From assembly GCA_951406725.2 (NCBI GenBank), contig OX597823.1:100812001-100876000 (forward strand): a stretch of 64,000 nucleotides of DNA, written 5' to 3'. Below, piece after piece: positions 8,210 to 60,368 of this stretch. Numbering within the stretch: the first letter of the stretch is position 1; each line of letters begins with the position of its first letter. Under the pieces are notes generated by a model. That model did not search any database, was not told the origin of the DNA, and saw only the letters and a program-made list of their open reading frames with translations. The translations under genes and the position numbers were made by a program. This DNA is from Octopus vulgaris (lineage: Eukaryota).

Positions 8210-9225
8210 ATATATCTCACCTTCACTCGCTTCCACAGGCTTAGCCAATACCGCAGGATGAAAAACATCAAGCTAAGTTCCTGACCTGTTTCCTCTTTTC
8301 ATTGTTTTTGCAAGCTTTATTATTATTGTATCCCCATCTAATAGCGTTATCGTTGTCTTTCATCTCAAATGCTAGCTGAAGCATAAAAACTTTCACTCAC
8401 AAAAACTTATTCACATCACCGCAAAGCATTTCATCTCAATCCTGTCTTCTTTCTGCCGCCTAAAACCTCATTTCCCAATGCGCGGTGTCACTATGTCTCT
8501 CTCTCTCTCTCTCGCTATGTGGTGTCGGTTCTCCCTCTGTTTTCACTGTCTCTCTCTCTCTCTCTCTCGGTATATATCTCACCTTCACTCGCTTCCACAG
8601 GCTTAGCCAATACCGCAGGATGAAAAACATCAAGCTAAGTTCCCGACCTGTTTCCTCTTTTCATTGTTTTGCAAGCCTTATTATTATTGTATCCCCATCT
8701 AATAGCGTTATCGTTGTCTTTTGTCTCAAATGCTAGCTGAAGCATAAAAACTTTCACTCACAAAAACTTATTCACACCACCGCAAAGCATTTCATCTCAA
8801 TCCTGTCTTCTTTCTGCCGCCTAAAACCTCATTTCCCAATGCGCGGTGTCACTATGTCTCTCTCTCTCTCTCGCTATGTGGTGTCGGTTCTCCCTCTGTT
8901 TTCACTGTCTCTCTCTCTCTCTCTCTCTCTCAGTATATATCTCACCTTCACTCGCTTCCACAGGCTTAGCCAATACCGCAGGATGAAAAACATCAAGCTA
9001 AGTTCCCGACCTGTTTCCTCTTTTCATTGTTTTTGCAAGCCTTATTATTATTGTATCCCCATCTAATAGCGTTATCGTTGTCTTTTGTCTCAAATGCTAG
9101 CTGAAGCATAAAAACTTTCACTCACAAAAACTTATTCACACCACCGCAAAGCATTTAATCTCAATCCTGTCTTCTTTCTGCCGCCTAAAACCTCATCTTC
9201 TCCCAAAAACCTCATCTTCTCCCAA
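7705..9225. repeat. Tandem array of four ~360-385-bp units, each with two internal (CT)n tracts
   Basis: Unit start acctcatttcccaatgcgcgg at 7705, 8081, 8465 and 8826, with a partial restart at ~9190. Confidence 0.95.
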
Positions 9226-9669
9226 TGCGCGGTGCGCCCGCCCTCCCACCCCCACCACCTATACCGGTGAACACTGTTCTCACCATCTACACCGGATACT
9301 CCCTCTTATGTTTCTCTATCTGTCTAACTATTTATCAAATTTCTCTATCTATCTAATTTCTCTATCTATCTATCTATCTATCTATCTTCATTCGTCTAAA
9401 ATCAAACTTCGTATCTTCGCGGTGCACCCGCCCTGCCCACCCCCACCACCAATACCGGATATCTCTATATTTTGCTCCATCTATACCGGATGTCGCTTCT
9501 CCCACCACCATTATAGGTGTCTACTCTTCGAACCCCCTCTTCAATACGCTATTTCACCATGCATTACCCCTCTCTCGATATCCTACGTTCTACTTGCCTA
9601 GAACCTGTCATCATTTCTCTGAACCACCCCTCCCCACTGGTACTCCCCTATATTTCTGCACCCCCACCC

Positions 9670-39026: not shown

Positions 39027-41608
39027 TTATTTCAATAAATTTGTCATGTAGGCATAATACAGAGGGGACAAACAAGGACAAACATAGAATGGTGAAGTAG
39101 CTTAAAGCGTTATTATAAATCGATTAAAAATATGAAAAATTAAAAAATAAAATAAAATAAAATACATTGCGCTATGCAATGTGACACCGAAGGAAAGGCA
39201 TCAGACATCAGGGTAGGGCCTTTGCTTTTCTTCCAAGGCTCCACTTACTTGGTGCCAATCACTCCCAGCTTTCTTACTACAGGCTTCCATCTCTTCTCAA
39301 ATTTCTCACGTGACAGATACCTCTTCTCCAGCCTGATCTTGCTACTGAGGTGGTAACTAAAAAAGTTGACCCCTGGCCAGATATAAAGGTACCCGTCACA
39401 ATCCCTTTCACACGTGTCTTCCATACCGTTTCTTTTAAAATGGCTACCACACAGTAACAACAGGCCTTCCTTTCCCCCGCTAAGGGAAGAAAGCGGCACA
39501 ATCTCAATGATAGCTGTACTCTTCCCATCGATGACATCAGTTGTTCTGTGAAAACTATCAGTCCCGATAATTACGGACATCCCACGAATGTGTGCAAGAT
39601 GGTTTCCCTGTCCTGCCCACACCTCGGACATGTCGGCGAGATGGCACTTACATGCCTTAACAGCTTATCATGAACTGGTAACGCCACAGGGAAGCACTGC
39701 CAAGCCAGGGCTTTCTAGTAATTATCCAGATACCCCGGCCTGAACATTCTCCTGAACAGGTTGATCATAGCCAGGGTCTCCCCCAAGGCGTTTTCAGACA
39801 TGAATCCCACTAACCTGCTATAAAAATCCACTATGGAACTTCTGTTGCCAGCATTGCCCACCTGAAAAAGTAGCTGTAGTGCCTGACGGCACTCCAATTG
39901 CCGATCCCACAGCCCAGGTCTCTGCTTGATCCATGTACCAATGTCTGTTAAGGACGTTAACCTAGGAAGGTAGAACCGGACGTGCGGTGACCACACCTGT
40001 TCTCCATCCAGGAGAAGCCAGAGGTGACTCAGCCTTAATGTGAATTTTCACATCCTCAGCCAAGGCATCCCTAGCCCACCCTTTAGTCTGACAGCAGACA
40101 GAGCACTTCACAAGAGGCTTTCCTCCTTTCCACAGAAAGCAGAAAAGGATTCTCTCCCACTTGTTCAGCCACAAATCAGAGCAAGGCACCACAGTCAGAC
40201 AGTAGGTGATAACATCTGCACCCCCTCTGCCTTCCCTAGCAAGGATAACGCCCACCCAGACCAGGTCTGGGTTAGAGCAGTCACCTTACTGGCTACCTCA
40301 GTACAATTTTTCTTGATCTGGAGATCTGGTCCAAACCAGACTCCAAGCAGCTCAACAGGACCTTCGGTCCAACGTCCTATGACGTTGTTGGATGTCATTG
40401 GCTTGCCTCTCCAGGTGCCGAGTTGGAAACCGACCGACTTTTCCTTGTTAATATTTGCTCCTGCCACCACCTCGTAACTTTTGATGGCCTCTTCCACCAC
40501 TGGAAGCTGGCTCTCATCCGCCACGATGGAGATGTCATCCACATACGTCGTAGCTCCACCTCTGCACTACAGATCCTTCGGTGGCCTCCTAGTGCTTCCA
40601 ACTTCCGCAGCATTGGCTCAAGAGCCAGTAAATACAAAAGCGGAGACAGGGGCACCCCTGATGTACTGAGCGTTTGATCCTGAATGGTTTCGAGAAGAAT
40701 CCATTCACTTTGACCGCAGACTCGATGTCGCTGTACAAAGCAGCAATCCAACTGTAGAAGGTCGGGCCTAGGCCAGCCTTCTCGAGGACTGCCACCAAGT
40801 ACCAATGGTCAACCCTATCAAACACTTTAGACTGGTCTAAATGTACCAGTGCCCCTCGTGCGCCAGAAAGATTCCCCACCCTAAGGTGTAGCATAGAAGA
40901 TGGAGATTGTTGTGGATCGACTTGCCTGGGATGGAACAAGTTTGTGCCCACCCTACAAGTCTGTCCATGACCCACGCCAACCTTTTTGCTAACACCTTGG
41001 CCAAAATCTTTAACTCTGTGCTTAGCAGAGTTATGGGCTGAAAGTTACTAATCTCATTCCCCTTGCTTGAGTCCTTTCTGATCAGCATCATCTCCTCTCA
41101 GCTTGCAGACTTGGGAATTCTCCCATTCTGCTGCCAATTGGTGTAAACGCAGGCCAGCAGGTGCCCGAACAAGTCTGGCATACTCTTATAGAATTCATAG
41201 GGCAGACTATCAAGACCCAGTGACTTCTCCCCAAGGCATTCGTCTAGCACCTTGATCACTTCCTTGGCTGTGATTGGCCCTTCACAGCACTCAGCCTCCC
41301 AGGCCAAGAGATGCAGGCTGCCAGACAAGAAGTCCCTAAGGGCCTCACCATGATCCCGAACAACTCGGCAAAGTGCTTGTATAGCGCCTCACCCATCTCG
41401 TCCTGACCTAATTGTGGCATCATTGCCATGCTGGGTTTCTACTGTACGGGCCCATCCAGCAACATTAATTCCCTCACAGCCCAATGCTCGCACTTTAGCC
41501 CGGACTCTACATCCCTCGTGTTTGACTTTGAGGTGACGGTCCAAGGCAATTCTTGCTGCCAAAATGTGGGATGCAGAGCCCAAACTCAACACCTCCTCTA
41601 AGTCCTTC
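39027..41608 (-). pseudogene. Tx1/L1-clade LINE ORF2 (RT to C-terminus, 3' UTR), heavily disrupted
   Basis: GLDSLPYEFYK, NFQPITLLSTELKILAKVLAKRL, LDQSKVFDRVDH, SVHQGCP/LSPLLYLLALEP, DDIS, LLGVWFG; A-rich 3' end. Confidence 0.88.
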
Positions 41609-42042: not shown

Positions 42043-44488
42043 ATTGACCAATATGGGTGGATTGTAGTCTATAAGGGAAGCAGTGATTAAATACCTGCCT
42101 TTGTGTGTAGGACAGCTCGGCTGAGGATAATATATCAGGGCTGTTAGTTGGTAGTGGCTTGAAGTTCATTTACAAGACGTTCTTCTTGGTGAAGTACATG
42201 TTGTGTCTCATGGAGATAGGATTGGCAATTGTGAGTTCTAGGTGAGTAATAAGTAGCCTTCCTTACTCACAATTATGTGAGTGTATGCTTATGTCCCCTT
42301 GACTCGACATGATAGTTGTAAATGAGAGCTACTGTTATTTAAGTTTGGTTGTTCATTCCAGTCTTTCATGAAAAAGACAACCTGCTAAAGGGGAACATTA
42401 CTTTGCTTGCTAACAGTTGAAGTTTGATGTTAGGCATTGAACCATAGAAAATCTGTCAGACCCATGCAAGCATGGTAATATGGAATGTTGAAACAATGAA
42501 AATGAGACTGACTGAAATGAGGCAGAAATGTGAAAAATGAAGTTCACCTTTTCATGATCATTTTTCAAAATGAAATACACTGTTGGAGTGGTTGGCATTA
42601 GGAAAGGCATCCAGCCGTAGAAACCATGCCAGATCAGATTGGAACCTGATGCAGCTCCCCAGCTTAGCAATTTTCAGTCAAACCATCCAACCCATGTCAG
42701 CATGGAAAACTGACATTAAATGAAGATGATGATGATGTCCAGGTGTTTCATTTTATCTTAGAAAACAAGTTCAAATGGATTCATTAAAATACTTAAGTTC
42801 TTCCTTATTAACATGGTGTTTGAACATATAATAAAACTGTACTTGAAATCATGATTGAAGATTTTAATTTAAATATAACCATGTTAGTTCTTTTGATATC
42901 AACCTACCTGAGAGCGCTCCTCACTCCATTACACAAACTTCTGGTTCTAAAGTGATTTAAATTAAAATCTTCCATCAAAATTTCATTTTAATTTATGCTT
43001 CAAACACTAGATTAATAACGACAAAGTTATTTTACCGAATTCTTTATTATTTTAAAAACTCAACCGAAACAAAGTATATTTCAACAAGAATATGGTCACT
43101 AAAGGGTTAAAGCAAGAATTGTTGTATACAGAATCAAAGGTGGTCTCAGTCAAGTTTGTCTCAAAAGAGTTAAATGGACAGTCAATTAATTTTACAAATG
43201 AAACTGCTGAGAAACCCTCAGGTAAATGAGTTCTTTTTTTTTACCTATTGGGTCTGGAGAAAAAGGAAAGGCTCATGGCCTTTGCAGACTTTCTTAGACC
43301 AGTGAGAATGATGCCATTAATGTTCCTCATGAATCTTTCTAAGTCAATACTTATGAGGAAGACTGGGAATAGTAGTTAGTGTGAGGCCTGGTAGAAATGG
43401 ACATAAGAGTGATCAGATGAGGAGGAGAGACTAGTGGAAGCAGAGTGTCTGAGTGAAAGAGGTGTGAGCACAGGCTGCTTTAAGGAACAAAGACAGCATA
43501 CTTGTGAATGAGAGGTTGAAGTGCGTCAATGAGTGATTTATATGTCAATCAGTTGAATGGTTTTTTCTGGATGGAGTTTATGATGTTTGTGTGTAACAGC
43601 AGCCACAGATCATCAAAGCTGTGAAAGCAATCCTCTAAACCTCTCTTAAACCACGTACCGCAATCATAAAATCAGGAAGGACATACGGAATACTGTAGCC
43701 CTGCATATACAATGTCTACAAAAAAGCAGATTGGTCATAACTGGAACAAGGTCTGACTATGATTAATCATGTTTAATCATAGTCAGAAACACACACGTCC
43801 ATAAACCCACAAAATCAAACCAATGAGCAAGACTGTGCATGGTGGCTTAACTTGTCTAAAATAGCAGAATAATCTTCCTCAAATCACAGTTTGTATGTTT
43901 ATTTTTCCATATTAACATGGATTAGATTAATATATATTATCAAGACATAGGATGAAGTGGTGAGGCATGACCTTTGAATGTTGGGCCTCACAAAGGCAAT
44001 GACAAGCGACCAAGACCTCTAGTGCAGTGGTTCCCAACCAATTTTTGGCCATGCCCCACTGAATCATTTCTAAAATCCTGATGCACCCACCCCTTGTGAT
44101 ATCTAATTTTTGTTATTCAAAATTTTACTACTATTCACTTGGAAGAAGCTTAAAAGGCTATTAATTTGGTCTCTAAACAAGCTTCCAAAGAACATGGCAT
44201 TCATGAAAGAGAAAAATAAAGAAAAGCGGAAGGGCAGTTAAATAAATAAAGTTTCAAAAACATTGTGGAGGACACCCTCGAGCCAGAGAAGTGGACTGTT
44301 CCACTACAAATAAATAATTGACAGACATAACGAGTGGGGAAACCAGCAAGCTAATTTATGTGGGTCGTATTGCACATTGTTATATACTTTTGAAGGTCTC
44401 CCGTTGGGGTGAGCCTATGATTTGGATTGTTGAATTTGTTTTATTACTGTTGCTGTTTTTGCCTGCGGCAAGTGGAGGGAAGGGAGAA

Positions 44489-45550
44489 ATGGAATGGGAA
44501 CTAGTTCCAGCGCTTGCCGGCAGTTATGTTTCGGCAGCTGGAAGGGATGTGGTTGCAGATGCGCTGGAGGTGCAGGAGGTGGAAATCAAGCGGAGGAGGC
44601 TGGAGAGGAGTGCAACAGGTTGGTTCAAAGGGAGGGAGCTGGTTTGGGGCTGGCCCCACCAGAAGAATTAACAACCAGCATAGCAAAGCAAATGGTGGTC
44701 TGCAGAACACTGTCTGCGACAGTGAGGAGGGTTGAAGTGGAAGCAGTGGAAGAGTGTCTGAAGGAGATGGGAAACCTGACAACATTATGGACAGGAGGGG
44801 AAAGGTGTGACATAGTGGAGGTGGGGTTCGCTAGCAAGTGGGAGGTGATGGGTTGCTCCACTGTGACACTCAGGACGCAGCAGTGGGTGCTCTTGCCAAC
44901 TTACCATGCCAAGGGGGTTGCTGGAGTGAGGATGGGTAGGGTGCCCCTGGAGGTCAGGGAAGCATGGCGGGTGGCAGCCATTTTGCATGAAATGGAGGAG
45001 GATGTGGAAATTTTGAAGGTGACGAGGACAAGGCGGGTGAACCAGATGGGGTTGTGGCCTTGAAGTGGCCTTCCAGGTGGGACTGGAAGATCTGCATGAA
45101 GTTGCTGAGGAGGTGGTTTTGCCAGATGATGTGGGATTGAGAGTGGTGGTGGAGGGTGGACCTCCAGCCTGTTACTGGTGCAGGTAGAGGGGACACATGG
45201 GGGTGGGGTGCCCCCAGAAAGGCATTAAAGGTGAGGAAGAGCAACAGGAGCAGAGTGCTGAAGTGGTGGCCCTGATAGATTAGGAGTGCTCAGAGGAGGC
45301 GGAGGAGGCATTTGTGGTGGTGGCCAGAGAGGAAGAAAAGGAATGTGTGAACTCAGCACCAAAGAGCCCACTAAAGAAAAGGAAGGAGAGTAGAGTGGAA
45401 TGTGCAGAAGCAACACGACACGAGCCTCCAACAGTACCACCAACAAAGAAAAGTGAAAGGGAAAATACCATAGAGAACCAAATTCCACCGCAGGAACAAA
45501 CAATCCAAAGATCTGCAAAGAAAAATCACCAAATTCAAATTGGTGATTAG
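44489..45550 (+). pseudogene. LINE ORF1-like CCHC zinc-knuckle protein inside the 5' LTR
   Basis: GSYVSAA..VEECLK..WVLLPTY..VRMGRVPLEV..ILKVTRT, then CYWCR*RGHMGVGCP (~45169-45215); frameshifted. Confidence 0.7.
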
Positions 45551-46085
45551 AATCAAACTACCAGTAGAACACTACCCAGAGAGTACGAAGGCAATTGTGA
45601 TAGAAAAGGTACGAAAAATTGAAAGATCTGTTTGGAAACAAGGTGGAATTTTTTGAACTACCACCAGTCATAGATTATAAAGACTTATTACCATATATAA
45701 AATAGTAAACCGTAAGTAAACTGTTTTAATTTCAAAAGACTGTACACACGATGTAGAAAGAAAAAAAAGGAAAAAAAAAGAGAAAACTGATATAAAATCT
45801 TACATTGAAATATTTAAATGGTACTGCTTGAGAGTGGGGCTCATGCAGCCATTTCATCCTCATTAATTATTATTCATCCCTCATTCATTGTTTTATGGTT
45901 TTTGTCCCCACTGTGGTGTTTTGCCTGTCCTTGTGCCATCCCCCCTCTGTGTTGTGGCATGTGTGCCAAATAGAGAAAACAAGTTAGCAAGGCACACCGT
46001 TTGGCCACTCATGTAGTCTGGGCCAGTTGAGCTGATGTACGTCGTCACAACACCACACAGAACAGTGTTGAACAAGACCCAACAG

Positions 46086-46095
46086 TGGCGACAAG
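46086..46095 (+). promoter_or_regulatory. Primer-binding site (tRNA-Ser(GCU)-like), repeated at 46149 and 46186
   Basis: TGGCGACAAG one base after the LTR end; the complement of the tRNA-Ser 3' end is TGGCGACGAG. Confidence 0.6.
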
Positions 46096-46506
46096 AATTT
46101 GAACTACATGCAGTGGAAAATGTAAAAAATCCTAACACTTTGTAAAAGTGGTGACAAGAATTTGAAAACATGCAAGACACAACAGTGGCGACAAGTTTTC
46201 GAACATACGCGGGATACAACAATGATTGCAGAATACAAAGAAAAATTTGATGATGAATTAAAAATTAAAGCAGAGAAATGTTTACAATATTACACGGAGA
46301 CGAAAAAAAAATAGTGCAACAGATGTTAAGAAACGTGTAGGAAAAGAATATGAAAACAAAAATGCGCGGGAAGCAATGGGAGTGGATGGAGAGAGGACTT
46401 CAGAATATTCACAAGATCCAAGTTTTTCCCTCATAACTTTTAGGAAAATGGTTTTTAAATGAAATGGATCTTTTCGGTTTGAATGGCAGTTTTTTAAAAT
46501 AATTTC

Positions 46507-47142
46507 GGCGAACTTTCGTTTGTCGTAGCACACGTTTCCGTCGATTTCCTCCGTCGATTGTCGATTTCCTCCGTCGATTGTCGATTTCCTCCGTCGATTT
46601 CCGTAAAAAATGTAAACACTGAATCGGCCATACATACATACATACATACATACATACATACATACATACATACATACATACATACATACACACACACATA
46701 CATACACACACACACATACATAGATACATACACACACACACATACATGCAGACATACATATACACATACACCGAGTAAAAAATTACACTGAATCGGCCAT
46801 ACATACACACACATACATAGATACATACACACACACACATACATATACACATACACCGAGTAAAAAATTTCAGTTATCTCTCTCTTTCAAACATTACTCT
46901 CTCTGTCTCTTCGCACACACTAACAGAAGCACTTCACTTACACAACATACTGTCTGTCTCCCACACCCCATCAAACACACACACGGGGACTTCAAAAAGA
47001 AATTCCCTCGTCATAAAATCGCTTCCTCTTAGTCTCTTTCGCTCTCATTACTTCAAATATTCCCGCAAAGTCATATGTAAAAGAATAAAAGTTTTTTACG
47101 GAAATCGACGGAAACATGTGCTACGACAAATGAAACATCGCC
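46507..47142. mobile_element. Nested MITE
   Basis: TIR ggcgaactttcgtttgtcgtagcac / gtgctacgacaaatgaaacatcgcc; 8-bp TSD ataatttc; 19-bp subterminal repeats. Confidence 0.88.
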
Positions 47143-47209
47143 ATAATTTCTATGTAACTAAACACTTTTAAACTTCGTATACTGGTAGAATGTGTTTATA
47201 AAACATCTT

Positions 47210-47599
47210 GGATCTTTTCGGTTTGAATGGCAGTTTTTTCTAGCGGTGTCGTATGAAATTGTCACCTATAATTATGATCTATTGCATTTCAATCTATTTT
47301 AGGGTTAGGGTTAGGGTATCTTTTTTTCTTCACAAATGTAAATAAACCTAATCTGTTTCTTAAACGAGGGACATATTCATACGGCACAGAATGTTTTTTA
47401 TCTCAAATACGTTAGTGATTGGTTGAAATTGCAGAAATTGAAGAAAAAAACAACAAATATCTTATAAACTATAGAATTTTCTCAATAAAGCCGAGAGAAA
47501 AAGATGTTTTATAAACACATTCTACCAGTATACGAAGTTTAAAATTTTTTAGTTACCTAGAAATTATGTTAAAAACTGCTGTTCAAACCAAAAAGACCC
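47210..47599. mobile_element. Nested MITE of the same family as its host, containing (TTAGGG)n
   Basis: TIR ggatcttttcggtttgaa / ttcaaaccaaaaagaccc; TSD aacatctt. Confidence 0.88.
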
Positions 47600-47634
47600 A
47601 ACATCTTTTTCTCTTGGCTTTCTTGAGAAAATTC

Positions 47635-48690
47635 GGATCTTTTCCTTTTGAACGGCACATGTCAACACAATTTCTAGTTAACTAAACACTTTAAAACTTT
47701 GTATACTGGTAGAATCATCATCATCATCATCGTTTAATGTCCGTTTTCCGCGCTAGCATGGGTTGGACAGTTCGACCGGGGTCTGGGAAGCCAGGGGCTG
47801 CACCAGGCTCCAGTCTGATCTGGCAGTGTTTCTACAGCTGGATGCCCTTCCTAACGCCAACCACTCCGCGAGTGTAGTGGGTGCTTTTCCCGTACCACCG
47901 GCACGGTGCCAGGGGAGTCTGGCAGCGGCCACAATCGGTTGGTGCTTTTAACATGCCACCGGCCCGTGTCAAAATAAAACATTTTTTTCTCTTGGCTTTC
48001 TTGAGAAAATTGTAATTTGTTTGTTTAACGTAGTTTAATTTTTCGAATTTTAACCAATGAATCGCCTCTATTGAGCTAAAATCATTTGCTGCGTCTAAAA
48101 CTGAGACAACATCCTGTCACTAACCCTAACCCTCACCCTCACCCTAACCCTAAATTTTAGCCTTTCGTTTTTTTTTTCTTAATTGTTAAATTAATTTAAT
48201 TGTTACGCGTGTGTCTAAAATTATTCGTTTTGTTTTTGTTTTGAGTTTTTTCTTTCGTTTTAGCCTTTCGTTATGTATACGTACAGATAGCGTGTGTATA
48301 AAATTATAGAATTATTTTGTTTGTTAATTGTTTAAATTATTTTCCATTGCTTTCGTTTTTTTTTTCTTAATTGTTATCCTTAAATTAATTTAACAATTAA
48401 GAAAAAAAAAAACGAAAGGCTAAAATTTAGGGTTAGGGTGAGGGTTAGGGTTAGTGACAGGATGTTGTCTCAGTTTTAGACGCAGCAAATGATTTTAGCT
48501 TAATTAGAGGCAATTGACTGGTTAAAATTCGAAAAATTAAACTATGTTAAACAAACGAATTACAATTTTATCAAGAAAGCCAAGAGAATAAAATGTTTTA
48601 TTTTGACACATTCAACCAGTATACGAAGTTTTAAAGTGTTTAGTTAACTAGAAATTGTGTTGACATGTGCCATTCAAAAGGAAAAGATCC
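47635..48690. mobile_element. Nested fold-back MITE with telomere-like hexamers on both arms and an RTE tail inserted at 47715-47965
   Basis: TIR ggatct(t)ttttccttttgaa / ttcaaaaggaaaagatcc; TSD gaaaattc; (CCCTAA)n at 48120-48152 and (TTAGGG)n at 48427-48454. Confidence 0.88.
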
Positions 48691-49811
48691 GAAAATTCTG
48701 TAGTATGTAAGATATTTTCTTCAATTTTGGTAATTTCAACCAATCAATGACGTCTATTGAGGTGAAAACATTATCTGCCGTAAAATCTTCTGGCGGTGAA
48801 ATATGAAAATGTCCCTTGTTTAAGAAACAGATTGGGTTTATTTACATTTCTGAAGAAAAAAAAGATACCCCTCCCCCCACCCCTAACCTACACCTAACCG
48901 TAACCCAACCGCTAACTCTAACCCTAAAACAGATTGAAATGCAATAGATCAATACTAGGGTCATAATTATGGGTGGACACTAAGGAGGGAACGGTTTTGT
49001 TATCCAGCTCTGTTTACGAGTGACCCCTCAGTTTATGGCCACAGGGTATCTTTTTTCTCATAAAATAACAGCGACATTTTCATATAACGCTGCCATAAAA
49101 TGTTACGGCAGAAATCGTTTTCACCTCAATAGACGTCATTGGTTGGGTGAAATTGCCGAAATGCAAGAAATTAAAGACCAAATATCTTACAAACTATAGA
49201 ATTTCCTCAATAAATGCAAGAGAAAAAGATGTTTTATAAACATATTCTACCAGTATACGGTTTAAAATTTTTTAGTTACATAGAAATTATTTTTAAAAAT
49301 TGCCGTTCAAACCGAAAAGATCCAATGAAATTTTATATAAATACCTTTCAAACGACATACATTATAGTTATAAAGAAATTTGAGGGTAAAATCTTTTCCG
49401 AATGGGTGGCGAGACGACTTCGGAAAATTCACAAGATCCGAGGTTTTCGCCCATAACTTTGAGGAAAATAAATATCTTTGATCAATATAAAGATCCTCAC
49501 CCGTTAACGAAAAAAAGAAGAAGAAAAAACCCCCAGTCTGCTGGGTGTTAACAACTGTGTAAAAAACGAATATTAAAAAAAATTATTGCGCAAACGAACC
49601 TGGGGTGGGGAGAGGACTTTCGGAAAATTCACAAGATCCATCATAACTTTCATGAAAATGGATATATATATATATATATAAAACCGCAACACCCTCCCCT
49701 CCCAATTCTACGGTCTTGGCCTTCAAGCAGGCTATCCACATGCTGGGGTTTCCCGAAAATCCGCCCAGGGCTGTTAAACGGAAAATTCTATTTTACAAAA
49801 CTATTTTTTAC

Positions 49812-50269
49812 ATTATTTACATTTGACGGATATTTGTCCTCATCTTGTTTGTTGTTAACACAATGTTTCAACTGATATATCCTCCAGCTTTCATCAGATG
49901 TCTGGGGGAAATTTCAAACCTTGGTTCTCATTCCTAGGGTATTTTTCCATGTTGTTGTTGTTGTTATTATTATTATTATCATTATTATTATTCATGTCAC
50001 TGCTTGGAATCGAACTCGGAATCTTGGGGTTAGCATCCCGCGCTCTTAACCCCAAGATTCCGAGTTCGATTCCAGGCAGTGACCTGAATAATAATATTGA
50101 AAAATACCCTAGGAATGAGAACCCAGGTTCGAAATTTCCCCAAGACACCTGATGAAGGCTGGAGGGTATATCAGCCGAAACGTTGTGTTAACAACAAACA
50201 AGATGAGGACAAATATCCGCCAAATGTAAATAATGTACATAATTCTTCATCTCTTAAATATAGAATTGT
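49812..50269. mobile_element. Head-to-head dimer of the tRNA-headed hammerhead element
   Basis: Left arm on - and right arm on +, joined near 50047; 15-bp TSD aaaactattttttac (49797-49811 and 50270-50284). Confidence 0.85.
50144..50189 (+). ncRNA. Minimal type I hammerhead ribozyme with intact core (mirror copy on - strand at ~49857-49902)
   Basis: gacac-CTGATGA-a-ggctg(gagggtatat)cagcc-GAAA-cg-TT-gtgtt; palindromic AACGTT in place of stem III. Confidence 0.85.
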
Positions 50270-50716
50270 AAAACTATTTTTTACCATAAATAACCGCCCA
50301 CCTATAATAATGGGTAGTAATATGGAAATAAAATATTTCACCTAGGAAAAACAAAGATATTCTCAAAAAGCATGTTTATTTTATAGAATTCCACTGAACT
50401 TCTATCGTTTCGGTTATCAGATATATAGACATAAAGAAACTGAAACAGCCTGAAAAGAAGTAGCATATCAAAAAATATTCTGAAGTTAACAATGGATCTA
50501 TTAGGAAATATTGAAAATTAAACTGTTGAAAACATGAATAGAAGCCTCGTATGAACAAATAATGTCCTTGGTCATTTATGCTAGAATAATAACCGAATAG
50601 TTTCAAGTTAAATATCACGAATTTCTTCATTTGTTGCTTGGCCATAATATCAGAGCAAATTTCACTTATCTGTGTCTCATTTTCCTCTTCACTTTTGTCA
50701 TGTGCATTATTTTACC

Positions 50717-53700
50717 TCAAAGCCAGACAAAACATCCTCTGAGTGTGATTTGAAGAGTCTTATGTGCTACAGTCTGGCCACGAGCTGCAATTCCATATCG
50801 TTCAAAAGCACGCTTTATTGTGTTTTTTTTAAAATTCAAAGTGGCAACAGCTTGAGTCACAAGGTTCGCTATCTCTTGATAAGAAGGCTTTTTGCGATAT
50901 CCTTTATTTGTATACGCCTTTTTGCCATTTGAAAACCAGTTCTCCCATTCAGCACGAAGGGCTTTCTTCAAAGGACCAATAATTGATACATCTAACGGCT
51001 GCAAGTAAGATGTTGTTTTAGAAGGTATAAGTTTGAGAATTGTAGTCCTACGTTTGAACACTTCTAGGAGCTCTGTTTTCTTGTGCACTGAGTATTCATC
51101 CACCATGAATACGTCGACTCAGAGATATTGCTTGGGCTGAATTCAAAAATCTGGATTCGACTGCAGCTTTTGAGGTGTACAAAACACAACGAGACCGAGC
51201 CGTGAAAATCGAAAAGAAAGAACGCTTCAGTTATGAATACAAAATCGCGGCAAATGCCAGTAGCAATCCAAAAACCTTCTTTGCCCATGTCCAGCGGAAT
51301 TCCCGCTTGAACAACCAGATTGCAACGTTGGTAGACTCAACAGGCGTATCGATTGAGGACCCTTATCAACAGAGTCAATTATTTGCCGAGGCTTTTTCAA
51401 CTATTTTCAAACAAGATGATGGTCGTGAACCCCCTCCATTTGATAGATCGGTACCTCCAATGCTTCGATTGGTCATCACGCGGGACGAAGTCAAACGTGT
51501 TATTCAAGGCCTCGATGTCAACAAGGGTCACGGCCCTGACGGCATACACCCACGGGTTATCAAAGCGTTGGCTCCGGTCATCTGCGAGCCCTTAACGCGA
51601 CAATTCAATATGTCATTGGCGACGGGTGTTATACCTGCAGACTGGAGAACAGCGATAATCTGCCCAATTTTCAAGAAAGGGAGCCGCGAAGTCCCGCTTA
51701 ACTACCGACCGGTTTCCCTTACATCAATAATCAGCAAGATGTTCGAAACCATCCTTAAGAAAAGTATGATGCTCCACCTCCTAAACACAGCCTCTATCTC
51801 TGATTCCCAACACGGCTTCGTGAGAGATCATGCTTGACCAACTTACTAGTAATGGAAGAATTGGTGACGCGCATCCTCGATGATAGTGATGCTGTTGACA
51901 TCGTTTTACTGGACTTTGCCAAAGCTTTTGACTCGGTAAACCACCGCCTATTACTTGTCAAGCTTCAAGCATATAGTTTCCATCCGGATATTGTACGATG
52001 GGTTGGTGCCTTCCTCTCAGATCGCTCCTTCCAAGTCCAAGTTAATGGTTCGCGGTCCGACGTCTCCAGTGCGAGCAGTGGCGTGCCTCAAGGTTCAGTG
52101 CTTGGACCCTTGTTATTCTTAGTCTTCATAAATGACTTGCCCGACGACCTCACGCAACACATCCTTCTATTTGCCGACGATATCAAACTGGTCGCTCCTC
52201 GCGGTAATATAGAGGATCTTCGTCGATGCCTCCACCAAATTTGGAAGTGGTCTAACGATTGGGACCTGTGTCTGAACGTGTCAAAGTGCTGTCATCTGCC
52301 TGTCGGCTCTACTCCTGCAACTCAACTTGATTTCGAGCCGGGTCGTCTGCTGCTGGAGAGGACCGATCAGGTAAAGGACCTAGGTATCTTGGTGGATTCC
52401 TCCTTTTCGCCTTCGGCCCAGTACGTCCATGCTGCCAACAAAGCACGCGGAATTCTGTTCTTGATTCGACGGTCATTCGGAATGCTCACAGCAGCCATAT
52501 TCCTACCACTCTATGTCACGCTGGTGAGACCCATATTGGAGTATGGGATTCAAGCCTCTTCTCCTTATCTCCTCAAAGACATACAGCATCTCGAAAGAGT
52601 CCAGAAGCTGGCTACCCGCATGGTTCATGGTCTCAAAAATTTGTCCTACGAAGAAAGGCTGAAGACGCTCGACCTTTATTCTCTTGAAAAACGCCGCCGC
52701 CGTAGTGATCTCATTCTCGCCCACAACATCATAAGCGGAAAGTGTAACCTCTCGAAAGAGCTGTTCTTCACTCCTGCTCCAGAGCGTCGGCTGCGGGGTC
52801 ATTCCGAAAAGCTCTACCTGCGACGATTTCATCTCAATCGAAGGAGAGGAGCTTTCTCCGTCCGGGTTGCGGATCCGTGGAACAAGCTGCCAGACGAGAT
52901 GGTAAAGATGCCGACGACCGCTTTGTTCAAAGCCTCCCTGGACCTCAAGTGGCCTGAACTCTTTACATGAACACCACCCTGTACTTAACTCCATGTCCCC
53001 CTACATGGCCTTGCTATTTGCTTTTGAGCCAAATTAACTAACTAACTAACTAACCATTAGCACTGAATTCTGAGCATGGAATAGTTGTGCTGTTCTCTGC
53101 CCAAACACTTTGTCAGCCCACAGCTGCCTGAGTTCATATGTGATTGATCCCTTGTTGGAGACTGTTACGGAAATATTCTTCGGGACCTTAATTTTATGCA
53201 CGTTTTTCAATTCTTTAAGGATAATCATTGTTTTCAATACCTTTCCTGCAGCTTTAAACACACAACACAGCAGTAAAACGAGCTTTGGTAGCACCACAGT
53301 GGCTAGCATCTACATTTTTATTGCCAACAAAGTCTATGGTTGTTGAACTCAACATGTCAATGTATACAGCTGTTTCATCCATATTATAAATCTGGTCAGC
53401 ATCCTTATCTGCTGTTAATATAGGAATGCTATCTAGATCGTCACTGGCGATTTGTGCCTTTACTCCAAGTGTTTTATTGCCTGCTTGACCAACATGTGTA
53501 ATCTTTCTCACAGTTTATTCCGTTTCATGAAATTGAAAATCCATTTATCAGAACATCTTATGCTGTTCACTTCCATTTCAAATCTTTTTACTAATTGAAA
53601 AGTATATTCCTGTAAACGACGATAATTTACGATTATATCGTTTGCACGCTGAACAACAATCCACTGTAAGTGTTCAAGCTCTAGGTCTCCATGTGCTGGT

Positions 53701-53903
53701 CTTCTACCTCCACAAATTGCTCTGCGCCCCCTCTTGTCTGACATTGATTAACTCAGTTTCTTTTGTGCACCATTCTCTCTCAGTCGTTTTCTGACACAGC
53801 AGATAAATTGCCAGAATGTTTTTTCACTCGTTTAATAGCACTCAATTTTTCAGATCGTATATGATCGTTGAACACGTCTTCATATATTTTCTTTTGACTC
53901 CAT
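50717..53903 (-). pseudogene. pogo/Tigger-type transposase (CENP-B HTH plus DDE_1), split by a CR1 LINE
   Basis: LELEHLQWI..CSDKWIFNFMKRNKL..IYNMDET..SVLMV|DEYSVH..TSYLQPLDVSI. Confidence 0.85.
51107..53052 (+). mobile_element. 5'-truncated CR1-clade LINE, RT nearly intact (one frameshift near 51825), (CTAA)n tail
   Basis: GPDGIHP, NYRPVSLTS, QHGF, LDFAKAFDSVNH, GVPQGSVLGPLLF, FADDIKL, RGHSEKL; TSD accat (51102-51106 and 53053-53057). Confidence 0.93.
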
Positions 53904-54061
53904 TATTGGGAATAAAAACCTTTTGAATTTATCTTCAGAGGTAAAACAAGAACGATAACTCTGTTTCAACTTTTAACCGCAAATCAACGCCCATGCGTGA
54001 TCGAAAAAACCCACTACTAGAAATAACAGCCAAATCTCACAAAACTGCGATAACATAATAT

Positions 54062-54995
54062 TGTTACGAACCTGCCGTCGCTCAACTCGAACTCGAGACC
54101 CCAAGTCGAGCGACGACGACGACCACGCTCAGTCAAACGGAAATCCACCACAGAAAGCGGCAATTGACAGCCAGAACGCAAGCCAGAAACCAGAGACAAC
54201 AACAACAGGAAGAGAGAGACAGTGGAAGGCAGTTGCTTACATTTACAACAGTTTATACAATTGTTACAACATCAATCAAAACGTAATACATTGCAGATAC
54301 ATTAAAGAAAAACATTTAATAAATCGTACAAAGTTAAAAAGAAAAACAATAATCAATGCATGCACAATACACGACGTCCGAAAATAATCCAATTTAAATG
54401 TTCAACGCAATACAGAGTTCGAAAACAGTCCAAATTAAAGTCTTTCTCTTCTCTTCAACAATTCTTTGTACATTTCAATAGATTACAGTTTATGTCACAA
54501 TGTTCTTTTCCCTTCTCTTTTTACAGTTCTTTTTGACACAATGTTCTTTTTCCTTTTTTTTTAACACAGTTCACAAGTTCTTTTCTCTTTTCGTTTAACG
54601 CACATCACCATCCAAAATTCAACAACAAAAACATAAACATTACCGCACGTTCCGAGTCTACAACAATTTCAGCTCCTACTACAACAATCTAGCCTTCTCG
54701 CCGTAATCTCCCTCACTTCCTCTCGCTTGACAAGTCCTCAATCCTATCTTCCTGTCCCTCTCGCCTCTTGCCAACTGTCATCTCTGCATCGACTCCTCTC
54801 GCTAACTAACTAACCCCAGCTCGCCACATTTTAAAGGGTGGTAGATTTACTTTTTTTTCTCAACCTTGCTTGACCGGATAAGGGTCAGAGGTACTTTCTA
54901 TCCTCATTAATTTCCCTTACCGGTGACAAGACAAAGCCCCATAACTTGTTTCGCCAGTCCATCTGGCACCAGCCAGCAGAAACTGGGTCATAACA
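54062..54995. mobile_element. Probable solo LTR
   Basis: Ends tgttacga...tcataaca (TG..CA with short inverted repeat), non-coding; TSD not found. Confidence 0.55.
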
Positions 54996-55857
54996 CTTTT
55001 TCTTCAACTGACCTCGTATCAATATGAAAGAAACATGTAATGAATCTACTCACTTTTCTGCAAAGATTTCTTTCAGAGTAATTTCCCGCAGTAATATAAC
55101 TAGTAATTCATGTGAAATTAAAGTGTTCATTTTTTTTTTCTTTGCTTTGAAAGTTTCCAAAAATATGAGTGCAGAAATAATAGCAAGCTCTTTTGCAAAA
55201 AGGAAAAGGAAAAATAGCAAAGAAATACTGTGACAAACGCAAAACATCGTGGAACTGAAAATGGGCAGATTGATTACATATTTCATAATAATACAAGTCC
55301 GAGGAAGTATTTCAGTCAGGTCGCTCATGTGTTCGTACGGCTGCTGGTAAGAATGTGGAATACATAGAGAAGAAGAAGAAGAAAAAGAAGAAGAAATAAT
55401 TGCCGATGGATGTGTGTCGGAAAACTCTATGTAATAATTTAATGCCTCTGTGATGAGAAATTGAAAAAAAAAGGAATTTGTTCTGTGCAATAGATAGAAT
55501 TGAAAAAAAAAAAAATTGTTGATAGATGTATATCGGAGAACTCTATGAAATAATTAATTTCTCGGCGATCTTCTCTGTGATAGGAGGGAGGAAAAAAATA
55601 TGCTGTGTATAGAAAAAAAATCTCAAAGTGGGGCGGTGGAGGACAGCCCCGAGTCAGAGAAGCGGGTTGTTTCACTACAAATAGTTAACAGACATAACGA
55701 GTGGGGCAGTCGATAGCATATTTTTTTCTTCCTGTTCGGTTTAATCATCTTTGATCCCTGTTAGACGTGAGTCGCATTGTTAATTATCTGTTGAAGGTTT
55801 CCCGTAAGGGTGAACCTCATTGTTGAATTGTTGTTGCCGTTTTTTTTTGGGGGGGGG

Positions 55858-56794
55858 GGCATAACTACAGATTCCTTCCCCCACCGACTTTGGATGATCA
55901 TAACTTTCAGAAGAATGGATATTTTTTAATGAAATTTTCTACGAATATGTGTTATATCATGTAGATTCCGAATATACAAAACCTTTGGGGGAAAGTCTTT
56001 TCGGAGGTGGGGAAATTTCGGAAAATTCACCGGCATCCACTTACAAGAAAATAGATATTTTTTAATGAAATTTTCTACAAATTTACCTCGGACTATGTAG
56101 ATTCCGAGAACATAGGAATTTGTGGGGAAAACAATTGGGGGTTACTTTTGAGGACCGTTCCACACTCGGGTGTGTTTCAGTCCATATTTGTTTCTTTTTC
56201 TCCGTTTTATGCGTTTGTGCATCCGTAGATTTCTACTGAAGCAGCCGGCAATGATGCTGTCACAAGAAAACTCGTTATGCTAAAAATACCAGCTAAAGGT
56301 CTAAACGTTTCTAAAAGAAAGACATTGAATAGAATAATTCCCCGTTTGAACTCTTTTAATTACATATAAATGTGTGTGAGGACTAGAAATCTACGGATGC
56401 ACAAACGCACAAAACGGAGAAAATGAAACAAATATGAACGACTTGTTCCGAATCACCCCAGAGTGTGGAACGGTCCTCAAAAGTAACCCCCAATTGTTTT
56501 CCCCTCAAATTCCTATGTTCTCGGAATCTACATAGTCCGAGGTATATTTGTAGAAAATTTCATTAAAAAATATCTATTTTCTTGGAAGTTAAGACGAATT
56601 GAAGTGGACACCAGTGAATTTTCCGAATTTCCCCACCCACTCCTAAAATATTTTCCCCCCAAAAGTTTTGTATATTCAGAATCTACATGTTATAACACAT
56701 ATTCGTAGAAAATTTCATTAAAAGATATCCATTTTCCTGAAAGTTATGATCATCCAAAGTCGGGGGGGGGGGGGCAGGAATCTGTAGTTATGCC
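55858..56794. mobile_element. Fold-back element (~380-400-bp arms) inserted in the 3' LTR
   Basis: ggcataactacagattcc...ggaatctgtagttatgcc; arms ~55858-56238 and ~56384-56794; absent from the 5' LTR. Confidence 0.88.
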
Positions 56795-56866
56795 GTTTTC
56801 TTTGGCTTATAAGTTTATATTTGTTTTCTTCCCCATTCATGAGTGAAGTAGAAGAAAAAAGAAGAA

Positions 56867-57940
56867 TGGAGTGCGAACCAGTTCCAGCTGGCAGCTATGC
56901 TTCAGCCACTGGAAGAAGAAGTTTAACTGCAGACGTATTACAGGTTCGAGAAGTTAAAATGGAGTGAAAGAAGTTCAAGGAGTTCAACAGAATGATCGAG
57001 AAGGAAGGGATCAGTTTGAGGTTGACCTCGCCGGAAAATTTAACAGCTAGCATGACGAAGCAGACAGTGGTATATAGAATGCTGTCCATGTCAACGCAAA
57101 AGATAGAAATAGCCATAGTAGAGGCCATAGAGGAATGCTTGAAGGCAGTAAAAAGCCTCACAACATTCTACACCAGAGGGAGAAGATACAGCCCAATGGA
57201 GGTAAGGTTTGCTAGCGAACAAGAAGCGATAAACCACTCCACTGTGGCGCTAAGGACAGCAGAGTGGGTACTTCTGCCAACTTACTGTGGCAAATGAGTG
57301 ACCAGGGTAAGGATTGGCAGAATACCTCTGGAGATTGAGGAGGCATGGCTGGTAGCAGCCATGTATAATATGGAGGAAGATGCAAAAGTTTTAAAAGTAA
57401 CGAGAACGAAAGAGGTAAATTGGTGGAGATACAGTCTCGAAGTGGCCATCCAAATCAGTTTACAAGACAAGATAGCAGAGGAGGTGATACTGCGGGGGGA
57501 CATGAGATAGAGTGTAGTGGTGGAGGAAAGACCTCTAACTTGTTATCAGTGTGGAGAGAGGGGACACATGACAGCAAGGTGTCCCCAGAAAGACGATACA
57601 GGTGAAGAGGAACAGCGAGAAGTGTTTGGAGAAGGTGGAGGAGAAATATACGGTGGTAAATAGGAAGACGTTGACTCCTCACCGAAGAGCCCATTAAAGA
57701 AAAGTAAACAGGAAGAGACACAGCAAAAGATTGCAACAACATCAAAAAGGGAAGCCAACATGAAAAATCAAGTGGGACTGCAGGAAAAAGTAACCAAAAT
57801 AGAACCGAAAAATAAATGGCATATAGTGACATATGCAAGAAGCACGGAGATTGAAAAGAAAATAATGAAAATGAAGTCGGGAATAAGGGTGAAACTATCA
57901 ACAGAATTATTACCCAGTGAGTACCAAGGCAATTGATATC
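56867..57940 (+). pseudogene. LINE ORF1-like CCHC zinc-knuckle protein inside the 3' LTR
   Basis: GSYASAT..IEECLK..WVLLPTYCGK*VTRVRIGRIPLEIEE..VVVEERPLTCYQCGERGHMTARCP (C-X2-C-X4-H-X4-C at 57541-57582); several stops. Confidence 0.75.
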
Positions 57941-58476
57941 GACAAGGAGAGATGTGAAAGATTGAGAGAATTATTTGGAAAAAAGATAGACCCAATGGGA
58001 GTACGCGTGGGGTTTAATGACTTGCCGCCAGTAATAGACTATGAGGATCTCATTGCCTTACATAAAATGGTAAAAAAAAAGTAAATGGTTGAAACACAGA
58101 TGCAAAAAGAAAAATGATATAAAAATGTTAAACTAAAACATTTAAATGATACTGCTTGCGAGTGGGGAGCATGCAGCCATATCATCTTCATTTATTTATT
58201 GTTCATTCATCATTCATTCGTTTTGTGTCTCTACTGTGGTGTTCTATCTTTCCTTGTGCTGTCCCCTCTGTGTATAAGCCTGAGTGCTTAAATAAAGTAA
58301 ATAGTTGGCGAGGCACACCGTTCGGTCACTCATGCAATCTGGGCCAGTCAGGTTGACGACAAAGTACATCATCATAATACCACACAGAACAGTGTCGAGC
58401 AACACACAACAAACATATAATAGAGAACTGAAATGCAGAAATATAAAATATTTGAATATAAAATACGTAAACTAAG

Positions 58477-60368
58477 TTAGTGAGATGCTTGTGCTTCATG
58501 CCTGCTACAAAGAGATTTTATATTAGGCACCAATTTCGTCTCAAGTCTCCTTGTTTAGTGATATCCAACCGATTTCTTTTCTTCAATAACAAATCATTTA
58601 CAGCACTAAAGCCACATTCAGCTAAATATGAAGATCGGAATGGTAACAACAATTTTCTTGCAAAGTTGGTTGAGTTTGGGTATTTGGTTTCTGTCTCATC
58701 ACAAAGCCATGACATCACTCCTTTTATATTGAATAAAGTTTTCACTGACTCATCATTTTCTATTTCCGAGAGTTCTTCTTGGTACTCTATCGAAACATCA
58801 GATATATCCACTAGCATTGGCTGCATCACCCATGTTGGAAAATCAATTTGTTTTAAATCAGAAAATCTTTCAAATCAGAGGCCAATGTTTACAGATTATC
58901 CACAAAGACAAGTACAGCAGTATCAGTCACCTTACATTTTCTTAGCCAATGAAACTGGTCAAAAATATTTTTTGACATACCTCAATGAATGTAACAAAGC
59001 CAAATATCTTCGTCTTTGCATCAATAAGAGTTTTAAATAACTCACAAATGCTTTACCATCAATGGTTAGCAGATGCTTCATTTCAGGCTTGTCACTTAAA
59101 ATGTCACTAACAACATCAAATAGTTCCATAAGTCTTTTCAAGTAATTCCCCTTTGAGAGCCACCTTACCTCAGTGTGAGATAAAAGTCTCACATAGTCTG
59201 CATTTTCACAAAACTGCCTGAAAAGACGTTCACATTTGGCATTAGCAGCTTTGATAGCATTGATCATCATCATCATCATCATTTAGGGTTGGACGGTTCA
59301 ACTGGGGTCTGTGAAGCTGGAAGGCTTCGTCAGGCCCAGTCAGATCTGGCAGTGTTTCTACGGCTGGATGCCCTTCCTAACGCCAACCACTCCGTGAGTG
59401 TAGTGGGTACTTTTTACGTGCCACCTGCACAGGTGCCAGACAGAGCTGGCAAACGGCCACGAATGGATGGTGCTTTTACGTGTCACCGGCACGGGGCCAG
59501 AACTGATTTTAGTACCTCATTGAGAACAGGAGACATATTTTTGAATACTAAGTTCTCTCTATGATAACAGTGCACAAAAAGCTTTTCTGGGTTCTCATCT
59601 TTCATCAATTTTAAGCAGCCTTTTTTCTTGCCCATCTTAACAAGAGCAGCACCTGCAGCACAAGATGATATGTTCTCTATTGGTATATTGTTGACATCCA
59701 AGTAATTTTTTAGCCTATCATATTCATATCAGTGGCGGTAGTGGTGGATTCTAATGATTCGCAGAATATCATTTCATCAACAAATTCACCATATCAATAT
59801 ATCTTGCATAGGTTAGCAATACAACCTCGCTGTCTCTTGATTCATCTATTTGTAATGAGAATTTTTTTGATTTCAGCTTTTCAACAAGTTGTGTTTCAAT
59901 ATTTTCCCTCATTTCATCTATTCTTTTACTAACAATATTGTTACTGAGTGGCATGACTTGAATAACTTTGTCATCTTTTTCCAGGACTGTTTTAAAAAAA
60001 TGCTGATATTGATGGTTTAATTAAATCCTCTCCAATAGTATGATTGTTTTCACATTTAGCAATGAGTAATGAAATTTTATAACTAGCCTCAAGAGTACGA
60101 CGGGCGTTAACAGATTGTGTAATAAACAGAGACATTATTGTTGTTCTTTTTGCAAACTTCTCCTTCAAAGACTTAAAGTAATTCAAATCTGAGCTTACAT
60201 ACGCACTGTTTCGTTTTCAAATGCAACTCAAGACGATTTGATTTCATTGATTTGATGGTCAAGCATTATTGGCATAAGAGGCAGAAAGGTGACCATTTAT
60301 TGTGGATAGTGGGTATAAATCCAAATTTTGAAATATTGACAAACTTTTTTTTTACTTGCACTACTCAT
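58477..60368 (-). pseudogene. hAT transposase (ZBED5/Buster/Charlie-like), disrupted
   Basis: BED finger (FCLLCQ..HLKTK), HTIGEDLIKP, PLSNNIVSKRI, FSLQIDES, LFVHC..HRENL, HTEVRWLSKG, SSYLAECGFS, C-terminal AQASH*. Confidence 0.9.

Follow-up and report, generated by a model that had tools for sequence, protein, structure and literature searches.

Two different ORF1-only LINE derivatives, likely inserted independently, in the terminal repeats of a TRIM within an octopus hAT transposon

A 64,000-nucleotide (nt) stretch of the Octopus vulgaris genome (assembly GCA_951406725.2, contig OX597823.1, positions 100,812,001 to 100,876,000; hereafter the window, in whose own coordinates positions are given) contains two long direct repeats that each carry a decayed open reading frame (ORF), and the question it raises is whether these are the long terminal repeats (LTRs) of a single retrotransposon that has captured a gene. 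A sequence-only reading took them so, as the ends of a 14-kb non-autonomous LTR element into whose LTR an ORF1-only derivative of a long interspersed nuclear element (LINE) was captured once, to be propagated as a chimera resembling a large retrotransposon derivative (LARD), that is, an element with a long, non-coding-looking interior between direct repeats. The features noticed there are real; the interpretation as LTRs with a captured gene is unsupported. We arrive instead, with a probability of about 0.88, at a terminal-repeat retrotransposon in miniature (TRIM) within a hAT DNA transposon, each LTR of which holds a different ORF1-only element, likely inserted independently by target-primed reverse transcription with the ORF2 enzyme of a co-resident L1/Tx1-type LINE. 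The two inserts are called E1 and E2 below, and L-numbers (L014, L176, etc.) label individual genomic loci that were compared.

The outer element is indeed a non-autonomous LTR element within a hAT. Its TG..CA outer ends are borne out (the LTRs end CAACA), and the 5-bp target site duplication (TSD) AACAT that flanks it is matched by a single AACAT-type copy in three empty hAT alleles (L170, L172, and L173), where the left and right hAT flanks are contiguous. The primer binding site (PBS)-like motif GTGG(C/T)GACAAG occurs at 46085, 46148, and 46185, and the polypurine tract (PPT) at 55625. No gag-pol lies between the repeats; the interval is occupied by a DDE_1 transposon, a LINE, a SINE-like (short interspersed nuclear element) repeat, and palindromic nests resembling miniature inverted-repeat transposable elements (MITEs). 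The length of 14 kb, taken as that of the element, is the product of later nested insertions. The repeats are repeated segments, as described, but not equal LTRs of ∼1.8 kb, since repeat 2 measures 2.8 kb (55637-58411) because of a palindromic insert (55858-56794) that makes it longer than repeat 1. The LTR portion of each repeat comprises ∼76 bp at its start and ∼105 bp at its end, 87% and 81% identical between the repeats, while the two are 64% identical over the 1.6-kb ORF part (self-BLAST). Paralogous LTRs begin TGTTGTGG; the window copy is one TGT short.

The LTR proper is thus ∼170-190 bp (family range 150-190 bp) and comes from an abundant TRIM of 0.7-1.3 kb, for which an empty LTR is the ancestral and usual state. 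With an empty LTR as query, all 40 matches scored, from 264 candidates, span the insertion site. Six paired empty TRIMs of 0.74-1.26 kb have a PBS and a PPT of the AAAGGGGGAG type, with a longest ATG-initiated ORF of at most 119 amino acids (aa), and L014 combines an empty 170-bp 5′ LTR, a PBS, and a ∼650-bp interior with a 3′ LTR interrupted by the ORF unit, which has a copy of CAGTC.GCGAGGTA on either side. An exact 5-bp TSD is found at the TRIM copies L035, L040, and L185, as at the window's hAT site. Two short TG..CA LTRs, a TSD of 4-6 bp, a PBS, a PPT, a lack of coding capacity, and a length of ∼1 kb together fit the definition of a TRIM that we used (PMC10886601, as far as excerpted). 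For the primer tRNA, a search with a tRNA-Ser pattern gave 0 matches, and there is no tRNA gene within the window; no autonomous LTR partner was identified among 10 LTR loci extended to 4.5-9.9 kb, in a gag-pol scan confined to those with a second LTR.

The hAT site supplies a second view of the empty state. Among 12 other loci of this hAT, three have an empty site, seven an ORF-free solo LTR, and one (L176) a TRIM with only its 5′ LTR filled, the last being uninformative. As an observation on the hAT family itself (44026-44258 and 58417-59260), eight of its 12 other copies bear the TRIM or a solo LTR at one site, which suggests that the TRIM travelled as a passenger when the hAT spread; it would have entered an ancestral hAT, which then multiplied while carrying it.

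Against this background, a single capture followed by spread of the enlarged LTR element becomes very improbable. It would account for the filling of both window LTRs at the same position, and capture of an insertion into a TRIM LTR has been proposed for Helenus/Ajax (PMC10886601, in the part available). LTR replication, however, would equalise the two LTRs, and the inserts differ; the capture-and-spread model therefore fails. In the window, the LTR halves are 81-87% identical but the ORF parts 68%, still 67% without A/G columns (64% by self-BLAST, as above), and between the window and L176 the hAT flank and TRIM interior are 93% identical but the inserts only 66-69%. E1 and E2 belong to different subfamilies: the nearest copy of E2, 86% identical, lies on another chromosome, and a clade of E1 with E2 is rejected (approximately unbiased test, p-AU 5.8e-6) in a tree of 60 copies from which the columns of E1 candidate edits had been removed. 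They are thus not the sister copies expected of a LARD or of LTRs with a captured ORF. Of the five paired TRIMs that hold any insert, four are filled on one side and empty on the other (the 3′ LTR is the filled one in L014 and L179, the 5′ LTR in L176 and L185), LTRs of hAT paralogs at this junction are empty, and of the two inserts only E1 bears the A>G hypermutation described below. The one-sided fills also rule out a hijacking of LTR strand transfer, by which an insert would be copied into both LTRs. Two independent site-specific insertions can hence mimic paired long ORF-bearing LTRs, a trap for repeat annotation.

What was inserted twice is a member of a family of ORF1-only units of ∼1.6-1.8 kb, with an AATAAA tail and a target duplication of ∼13-17 bp. 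For the 72 ORF1 units with both ends located, a TSD score of at least 9 was reached by 37, compared with 4 of 216 shuffles; the TSD-bounded units are 1.35-2.17 kb long (median 1.8 kb, n = 37), which leaves no room for ORF2. The exact junction of tail and target is found 15 times in the genome, the reversed pattern 0 times. When an open frame was used as query, 143 of 13,900 first-look candidates were scored and yielded 144 matches, so the family is large; since autonomous relatives are included, as are fragments, the total should not be read as a copy number.

The motifs ascribed to the decayed ORFs are in place (SYVSA at 44522 and SYASA at 56893; one CCHC knuckle each, at 45170 with a stop inside and at 57541), and the proposed resemblance to an RNA recognition motif (RRM) extends to two RRM-like folds in the predicted model of an intact relative, the 432-aa ORF1 of L098. 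In that model (20-row alignment, mean predicted local distance difference test score 75), the two RRM-like domains are accompanied by a CCHC knuckle, a charged linker, and an alpha/beta domain at the C terminus; fold-search Z-scores are middling (best 8.6) and support RRM-like folds but no named family. ESM Atlas lists ZCCHC3-type clusters at 0.90, and Pfam finds zf-CCHC only. A protein homology search with the ORF, with 7999 candidates of near lengths scored, retrieved only two Octopus bimaculoides proteins, and a profile search 1205 unnamed matches. The type II ORF1p of mammalian HAL1 (half-L1) proper, with a coiled coil, one RRM, and a C-terminal domain (Transposase_22), is not what we find; the RRM/CCHC architecture is that of a type I ORF1, consistent with Tx1 (PMC5203782, in part). 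The ORF is thus, as the sequence-only reading had it, the RRM-RRM-CCHC, ZCCHC3-like ORF1 of an ORF1-only LINE derivative. It is barely credible that this ORF could instead encode a Gag, from a DIRS/Ngaro or Gypsy element, or that the unit could be a Penelope-like element equipped with pseudo-LTRs: tandem and inverted copies exist, and hammerhead-like motifs follow some inserts, but homologous ORFs directly precede the apurinic endonuclease (APE)-reverse transcriptase (RT)-zfRVT ORF2 of intact LINEs, the predicted fold is RRM-RRM-CCHC, the units terminate in AATAAA and carry TSDs, and the hammerhead motif lies outside the TSD.

Comparison among copies, also proposed from the sequence, indicates that ORF1 of this family is under purifying selection, with a median dN/dS of 0.24 (range 0.12-0.31) over the 10 unsaturated mid-distance pairs of 91, 78 of which are saturated, in frames picked for being open and with ∼4 of 14 rows unverified as ORF1-only by their tail. 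The 14 open ORF1-only-type frames fall on one side of a branch (support 96/94), apart from 19 autonomous ORF1s; that the frames were open-selected and found with the family query favours both results. A possible reason for the retention of ORF1p is that it would assist, in cis, the RNA that encodes it. At L137:7187-8431 and L177:6732-7298 there is a second type that looks ORF1-only but is more divergent and groups away from the main ORF1-only rows, the L177 copy being stacked between two copies at the same TRIM site, which suggests more than one origin. The intact ORF1-only copy of L098 is flanked by a 676-bp, 98%-identical inverted duplication of its 3′ end (L098:6925-7599 and 8869-9542), which could form double-stranded RNA (dsRNA).

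Candidate partners occur in the same genome. A zf-RVT search yielded intact ORF2s of ∼1130 aa with Exo_endo_phos, RVT_1, and zf-RVT domains, the best PDB match of an autonomous ORF2 being human L1 ORF2p (E = 3.5e-66), and the ORF1s preceding intact ORF2s are homologous to the inserts (E 1e-19 to 1e-28). These LINEs have the Tx1-type combination of an L1-group ORF2 (APE, RT, and zf-RVT) with an RRM/CCHC ORF1, and the inserts the HAL1-type organization, in which an ORF1 with a homologue in an autonomous LINE is followed by the 3′ tail, with no intervening ORF2. The autonomous LINEs show a target preference, in that targets recur among their 3′ ends and intact copies have long TSDs; when 30 such ends, all related to L193, were compared, one lay at the window TRIM's site and four at the target of the ORF1-only L030. 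The last 57-66 nt are common to the ORF1-only tail, at 86-89% identity, in 3 of 20 extended loci (L329, L330, and L332). We infer from such comparisons an old ORF1-only lineage that adopts the tails of its current partners, as SINEs do; the partner endonuclease would set the target, and a swap of the 3′ tail would let the lineage change both partner and target. A full-length LINE at L187, considered as partner, was rejected, as it lies inside an ORF1-only 3′ untranslated region (UTR) and its relatives use other targets. Elsewhere, head-to-tail arrays of L1/Tx1-type LINEs with a ∼5.4-kb period (G000:C2:73046133-73068136 and other clusters) are probably recently active, because several members carry a 1140-aa open ORF2. 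At L329 (G000:C12:25258000-25264900), 13 tRNA-Cys(GCA) genes follow one another in tandem every ∼155 bp, and a truncated L1/Tx1-type LINE lies ∼2 kb away.

Half of the target classes have a feature in common. In 7 of the 14, the duplication is preceded at 27-37 nt by a strict TATAWA, compared with 0.35 expected from shuffles and 0 at four other offsets, and a relaxed motif that includes the TAAATA of the window TRIM is found in 9 of the 14; the classes were grouped by eye and, like the relaxed motif, chosen with the data already known. The sequences used by other subfamilies comprise several LTR-like repeats and the 5′ end of a SINE-like repeat, together with repeats in which a hammerhead-like motif closely follows the insertion site; unlike subfamilies are stacked in tandem at a single site. 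One subfamily (L009, L100, L253, and L290) inserts at the extreme 5′ end of an abundant SINE-like repeat. The target sites would be transcription start regions, where an insert would borrow the promoter of its host transposon; co-transcription with the target has been discussed for R2 and SINEU (PMC4494074, in the text available). The simplest reading is a sequence specificity set by the endonuclease combined with selection for start-region sites that would supply a promoter.

Targeting by position is a less likely alternative in our view: ORF1p would tether the integration complex to the TATA-binding protein (TBP)/RNA polymerase II (Pol II) pre-initiation complex at TATA promoters, hence the retention of ORF1. 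Relatives of E2 (81-86% identical) do lie in three unrelated targets (L026, of the window's TRIM family, L078, and L030), each ∼31-32 nt after a TATA-like box, and the TATA enrichment at target classes and the conservation of ORF1 agree with tethering, as does the precedent of TRE5-A, whose ORF1 binds TBP in vitro and whose ORF1-only relative TRE5-A.2 keeps targeting (PMC5391098, sections available). The offsets, though, differ by subfamily (27-46 nt), one target having two fixed sites next to each other, and autonomous and ORF1-only copies whose ORF1s are ∼30% identical share an exact target, which points to the endonuclease; no host-gene promoter insertion was recognised, without a dedicated search. 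The same lineage could serve as a test of whether target choice lies with the endonuclease or with promoter-bound factors, and, apparently homing to one position in many unrelated transposons, it offers a natural system for asking why non-autonomous LINEs keep ORF1.

At eight loci (L096, L097, L098, L102, L110, L242, L264, and L295), a minimal hammerhead-like motif, CTGATGA..GAAAC, stands just after the TSD (background 0.003 per 100 nt); being outside the TSD, it is therefore part of the target. An Rfam scan of six loci returned no hammerhead, only microsatellite-driven matches, the minimum-free-energy fold of the motif is not significant (z = 0.9), and the loci with the motif have no Penelope RT, such as would mark these targets as Penelope-like pseudo-LTRs. 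The intact LINE L135 has a hammerhead-like motif in its downstream flank.

Besides the choice of frames and the by-eye grouping of targets already mentioned, several observations count against the reading of the locus as two site-specific insertions powered by an L1/Tx1-type partner. No convincing TSD accompanies 35 of the 72 ORF1 units, and the window's own target duplications are degenerate (9/14 matches for E1 and 5/14 for E2). The autonomous copies that share the tail are 5′-truncated, a direct parent was not found among full-length relatives, whose ORF1s are ∼29-35% identical to the ORF1-only query, and the window TRIM's site is used by only the single autonomous 3′ end given above. The partner may belong either to the Tx1 or to the L1 clade. 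Strict TATAWA is missing in 7 of 14 classes, the window TRIM mostly having TAAATA only, some insertion sites are ∼45 nt downstream, and no clear TATA pattern was seen by eye before the young intact LINEs L131-L150; the sites are presumed start regions.

E1 differs from E2 in one further respect. It is the most G-rich of 118 distinct copies (G 0.40 versus 0.276 ± 0.022), and relative to per-column majorities it has A>G at 99 of 287 A sites but T>C at 4 of 113, concentrated at ∼44440-45340 and at background level after ∼45340. By 5′ neighbour, A>G affects 18/22 sites after T, 37/79 after A, 10/32 after C, and 6/62 after G (5′ G depletion, p = 1e-4), compared with 8, 9, 5, and 4%, respectively, for 13 other copies pooled; 3′ G enrichment is not significant (p = 0.06 for the whole element, 0.35 for the core). 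A second hypermutated copy, L110:6551-8300 (two of 118 in all), has 182 A>G versus 31 G>A against L242, and inverted copies are present at L098 and L110. ADAR prefers a 5′ U or A and disfavours a 5′ G, and editing in cephalopods is very high (PMC5663115, in part); the E1 pattern was likely left by octopus RNA editing, with an RNA template that would have been hyper-edited by ADAR before reverse transcription.

An origin of the G-richness in assembly error, GC-biased conversion, or an unsampled G-rich subfamily is, in our judgement, unlikely. No close relative of E1 was found (best ∼70% among 40 scored of 666 candidates), so that its yardstick consists of other subfamilies, and no dsRNA partner was identified for it. 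Yet E1 recurs in contigs of four runs, from four studies and under four organism labels, each piece departing from it by 0-4 differences, and its sequence is therefore not an assembly error; the change is strand-specific and falls to background past ∼45340, the ranking of 5′ neighbours, T>A>C>G, agrees with what ADAR prefers (PMC5663115, in part), and L110:6551-8300 repeats the pattern. Joints in the runs that skip the insert probably derive from empty LTRs elsewhere, and we did not take them as evidence of an empty allele. No RNA data set was listed as containing E1, which bears neither way on its expression. At 44467-44469, in the E1 5′ UTR, all four other runs carry a 38-nt segment without counterpart in the window, where the assembly holds either a deletion allele or an error. 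From copies such as E1 it would follow that retrotransposon RNA is a substrate of ADAR in the germ line of cephalopods, and that RNA, once edited, can return to DNA by reverse transcription, which is testable genome-wide in an animal known for very high editing.

Taken together, these strands permit a bolder scenario, which we think rather unlikely: a long-lived, promoter-less ORF1-only lineage whose conserved ORF1p would read Pol II TATA/TBP and guide a Tx1 enzyme, itself borrowed, to where other retrotransposons start transcription, with ∼2 in 100 copies as fossils of germ-line ADAR hyper-editing. If true, this would make the lineage the Pol II equivalent of TRE5, and a hyperparasite that takes over the promoters of its rivals and at the same time disables them.

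The features of the locus are collected in Table 1, in which the 5′-truncated LINE RT is one that we take to be CR1/L2-like. Further afield in the window, a TG..CA-bounded segment of ∼765 bp on the minus strand (54062-54826) resembles a solo LTR, with no second copy among the loci compared, and LINE ORF2 remnants lie at 39260-41607 (-) and 12879-13841 (-), the first L1/Tx1-like and 44% identical to the L140 ORF2.

Table 1. Features of the nested locus, in window coordinates
Feature	Positions	Strand	Remarks
hAT DNA transposon 3′ end, decayed (left flank)	44026..44258	-	Rejoins right flank in L170, L172, L173
5-bp TSD AACAT, left	44259..44263	.
TRIM 5′ LTR, upstream (U3-side) half	44264..44339	+	TATA-like ATAAATA at 44310; matches empty 170-bp LTR family; 87% to the half in repeat 2
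E1 left target duplication, decayed	44340..44353	+	9/14 match to right copy; family target CAGTCNGCGAGG
E1, ORF1-only non-LTR element	44354..45980	+	T-rich 5′ UTR; frameshifted ORF1 ~44492-45715; 3′ UTR; decayed AATAAA at 45968
E1 A>G-hypermutated stretch	~44440-45340	+
E1 right target duplication (45981-45994) and U5-side half of 5′ LTR	45981..46084	+	Ends CAACA
PBS-like motif, three copies	46085..46200	+	Same motif follows empty 5′ LTRs
Nested palindromic MITE-like repeats, microsatellites, SINE-like repeat (47714-47966)	46320..50243	.	Self-BLAST; class names by resemblance
DDE_1 (pogo/Tigger-type) DNA transposon, split by LINE	50270..54005	-	PF03184 E=8e-11; halves adjoin in L350-L354
LINE RT, 5′-truncated	51109..53050	+	RVT_1 E=7e-24
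TRIM 3′ internal region up to PPT (55625)	55250..55636	+	93% to paralog L176 over 167 nt; matches empty TRIMs
TRIM 3′ LTR, upstream half	55637..55706	+
E2 left target duplication, decayed	55707..55720	+	5/14 match to right copy, weak
E2, ORF1-only non-LTR element, other subfamily	55721..58301	+	ORF1 ~56866-58080 with stops and frameshift; AATAAAG at 58291
Palindromic MITE-like insertion in E2 5′ UTR	55858..56794	.	80% self-inverted over 976 nt
E2 right target duplication (58302-58315) and downstream half of 3′ LTR	58302..58411	+	Ends CAACA
5-bp TSD AACAT, right	58412..58416	.
hAT transposase C-terminal region (right flank)	58417..59260	-	Dimer_Tnp_hAT E=0.0014, below curated cut-off; paralogs 77-83% (BLAST)

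The literature searched, which took in neither Repbase Reports nor most subscription papers, gave no account of an ORF1-only Tx1 derivative in octopus, nor of retrocopies with A-to-I editing in the DNA of cephalopods; the family may already be deposited in Repbase or Dfam. Active L1-Tx1 families are listed in a repeat annotation of Octopus vulgaris from 2026, in whose main text, as available, the terms HAL1, ORF1, and nested do not occur (PMC13282606).

ORF1-only non-autonomous LINEs are established in the L1, Jockey, and CR1 clades, with HAL1, HeT-A, and Ag-Sponge as examples (PMC5753468, PMC5786205); no Tx1-type case is among those given in the available text of these two papers. Going by the same text, the octopus elements share with them an ORF1p as sole product, a LINE-type 3′ tail, and dependence on a partner's ORF2, but differ in an RRM-RRM-CCHC ORF1 and in site-specific insertion inside other transposons. 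The latter habit is known from the L1-group LINEs Tx1L, Tx1-Mar, Tx1-8_Crp, and Tx1-4_AMi, which prefer other transposons, LTR retrotransposons included, and whose non-autonomous SINEU shares their target (PMC4494074, in part); the octopus passenger, in contrast, encodes a conserved ORF1 and uses many unrelated targets, ∼30 nt after a TATA-like box. TRE5-A.2 of Dictyostelium is likewise ORF1-only, mobilised in trans, and position-specific by promoter, and TRE5-A ORF1p has been proposed to tether at tRNA genes (PMC5391098, sections available); TRE5 inserts ∼47 bp upstream of Pol III tRNA genes, whereas the octopus element lies just downstream of likely Pol II TATA boxes. The window's host element resembles TRIMs, Helenus and Ajax included, in its two short LTRs, PBS, PPT, TSD, absence of a protein, and length of ∼1 kb, but, compared with Helenus/Ajax as excerpted in PMC10886601, no small-RNA-derived sequence was seen in the octopus LTR, and the TRIM, in spreading, did not carry the LTR insert along. 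With a LARD the locus shares the long, non-coding-looking interior between direct repeats, but its length comes from unrelated nested insertions and its long 'LTRs' are composites rather than sister copies. The locus is thus likely a TRIM hit twice by a site-specific ORF1-only LINE derivative akin to HAL1, TRE5-A.2, and Tx1, with promoter homing and ADAR-edited copies as likely additions to those systems.

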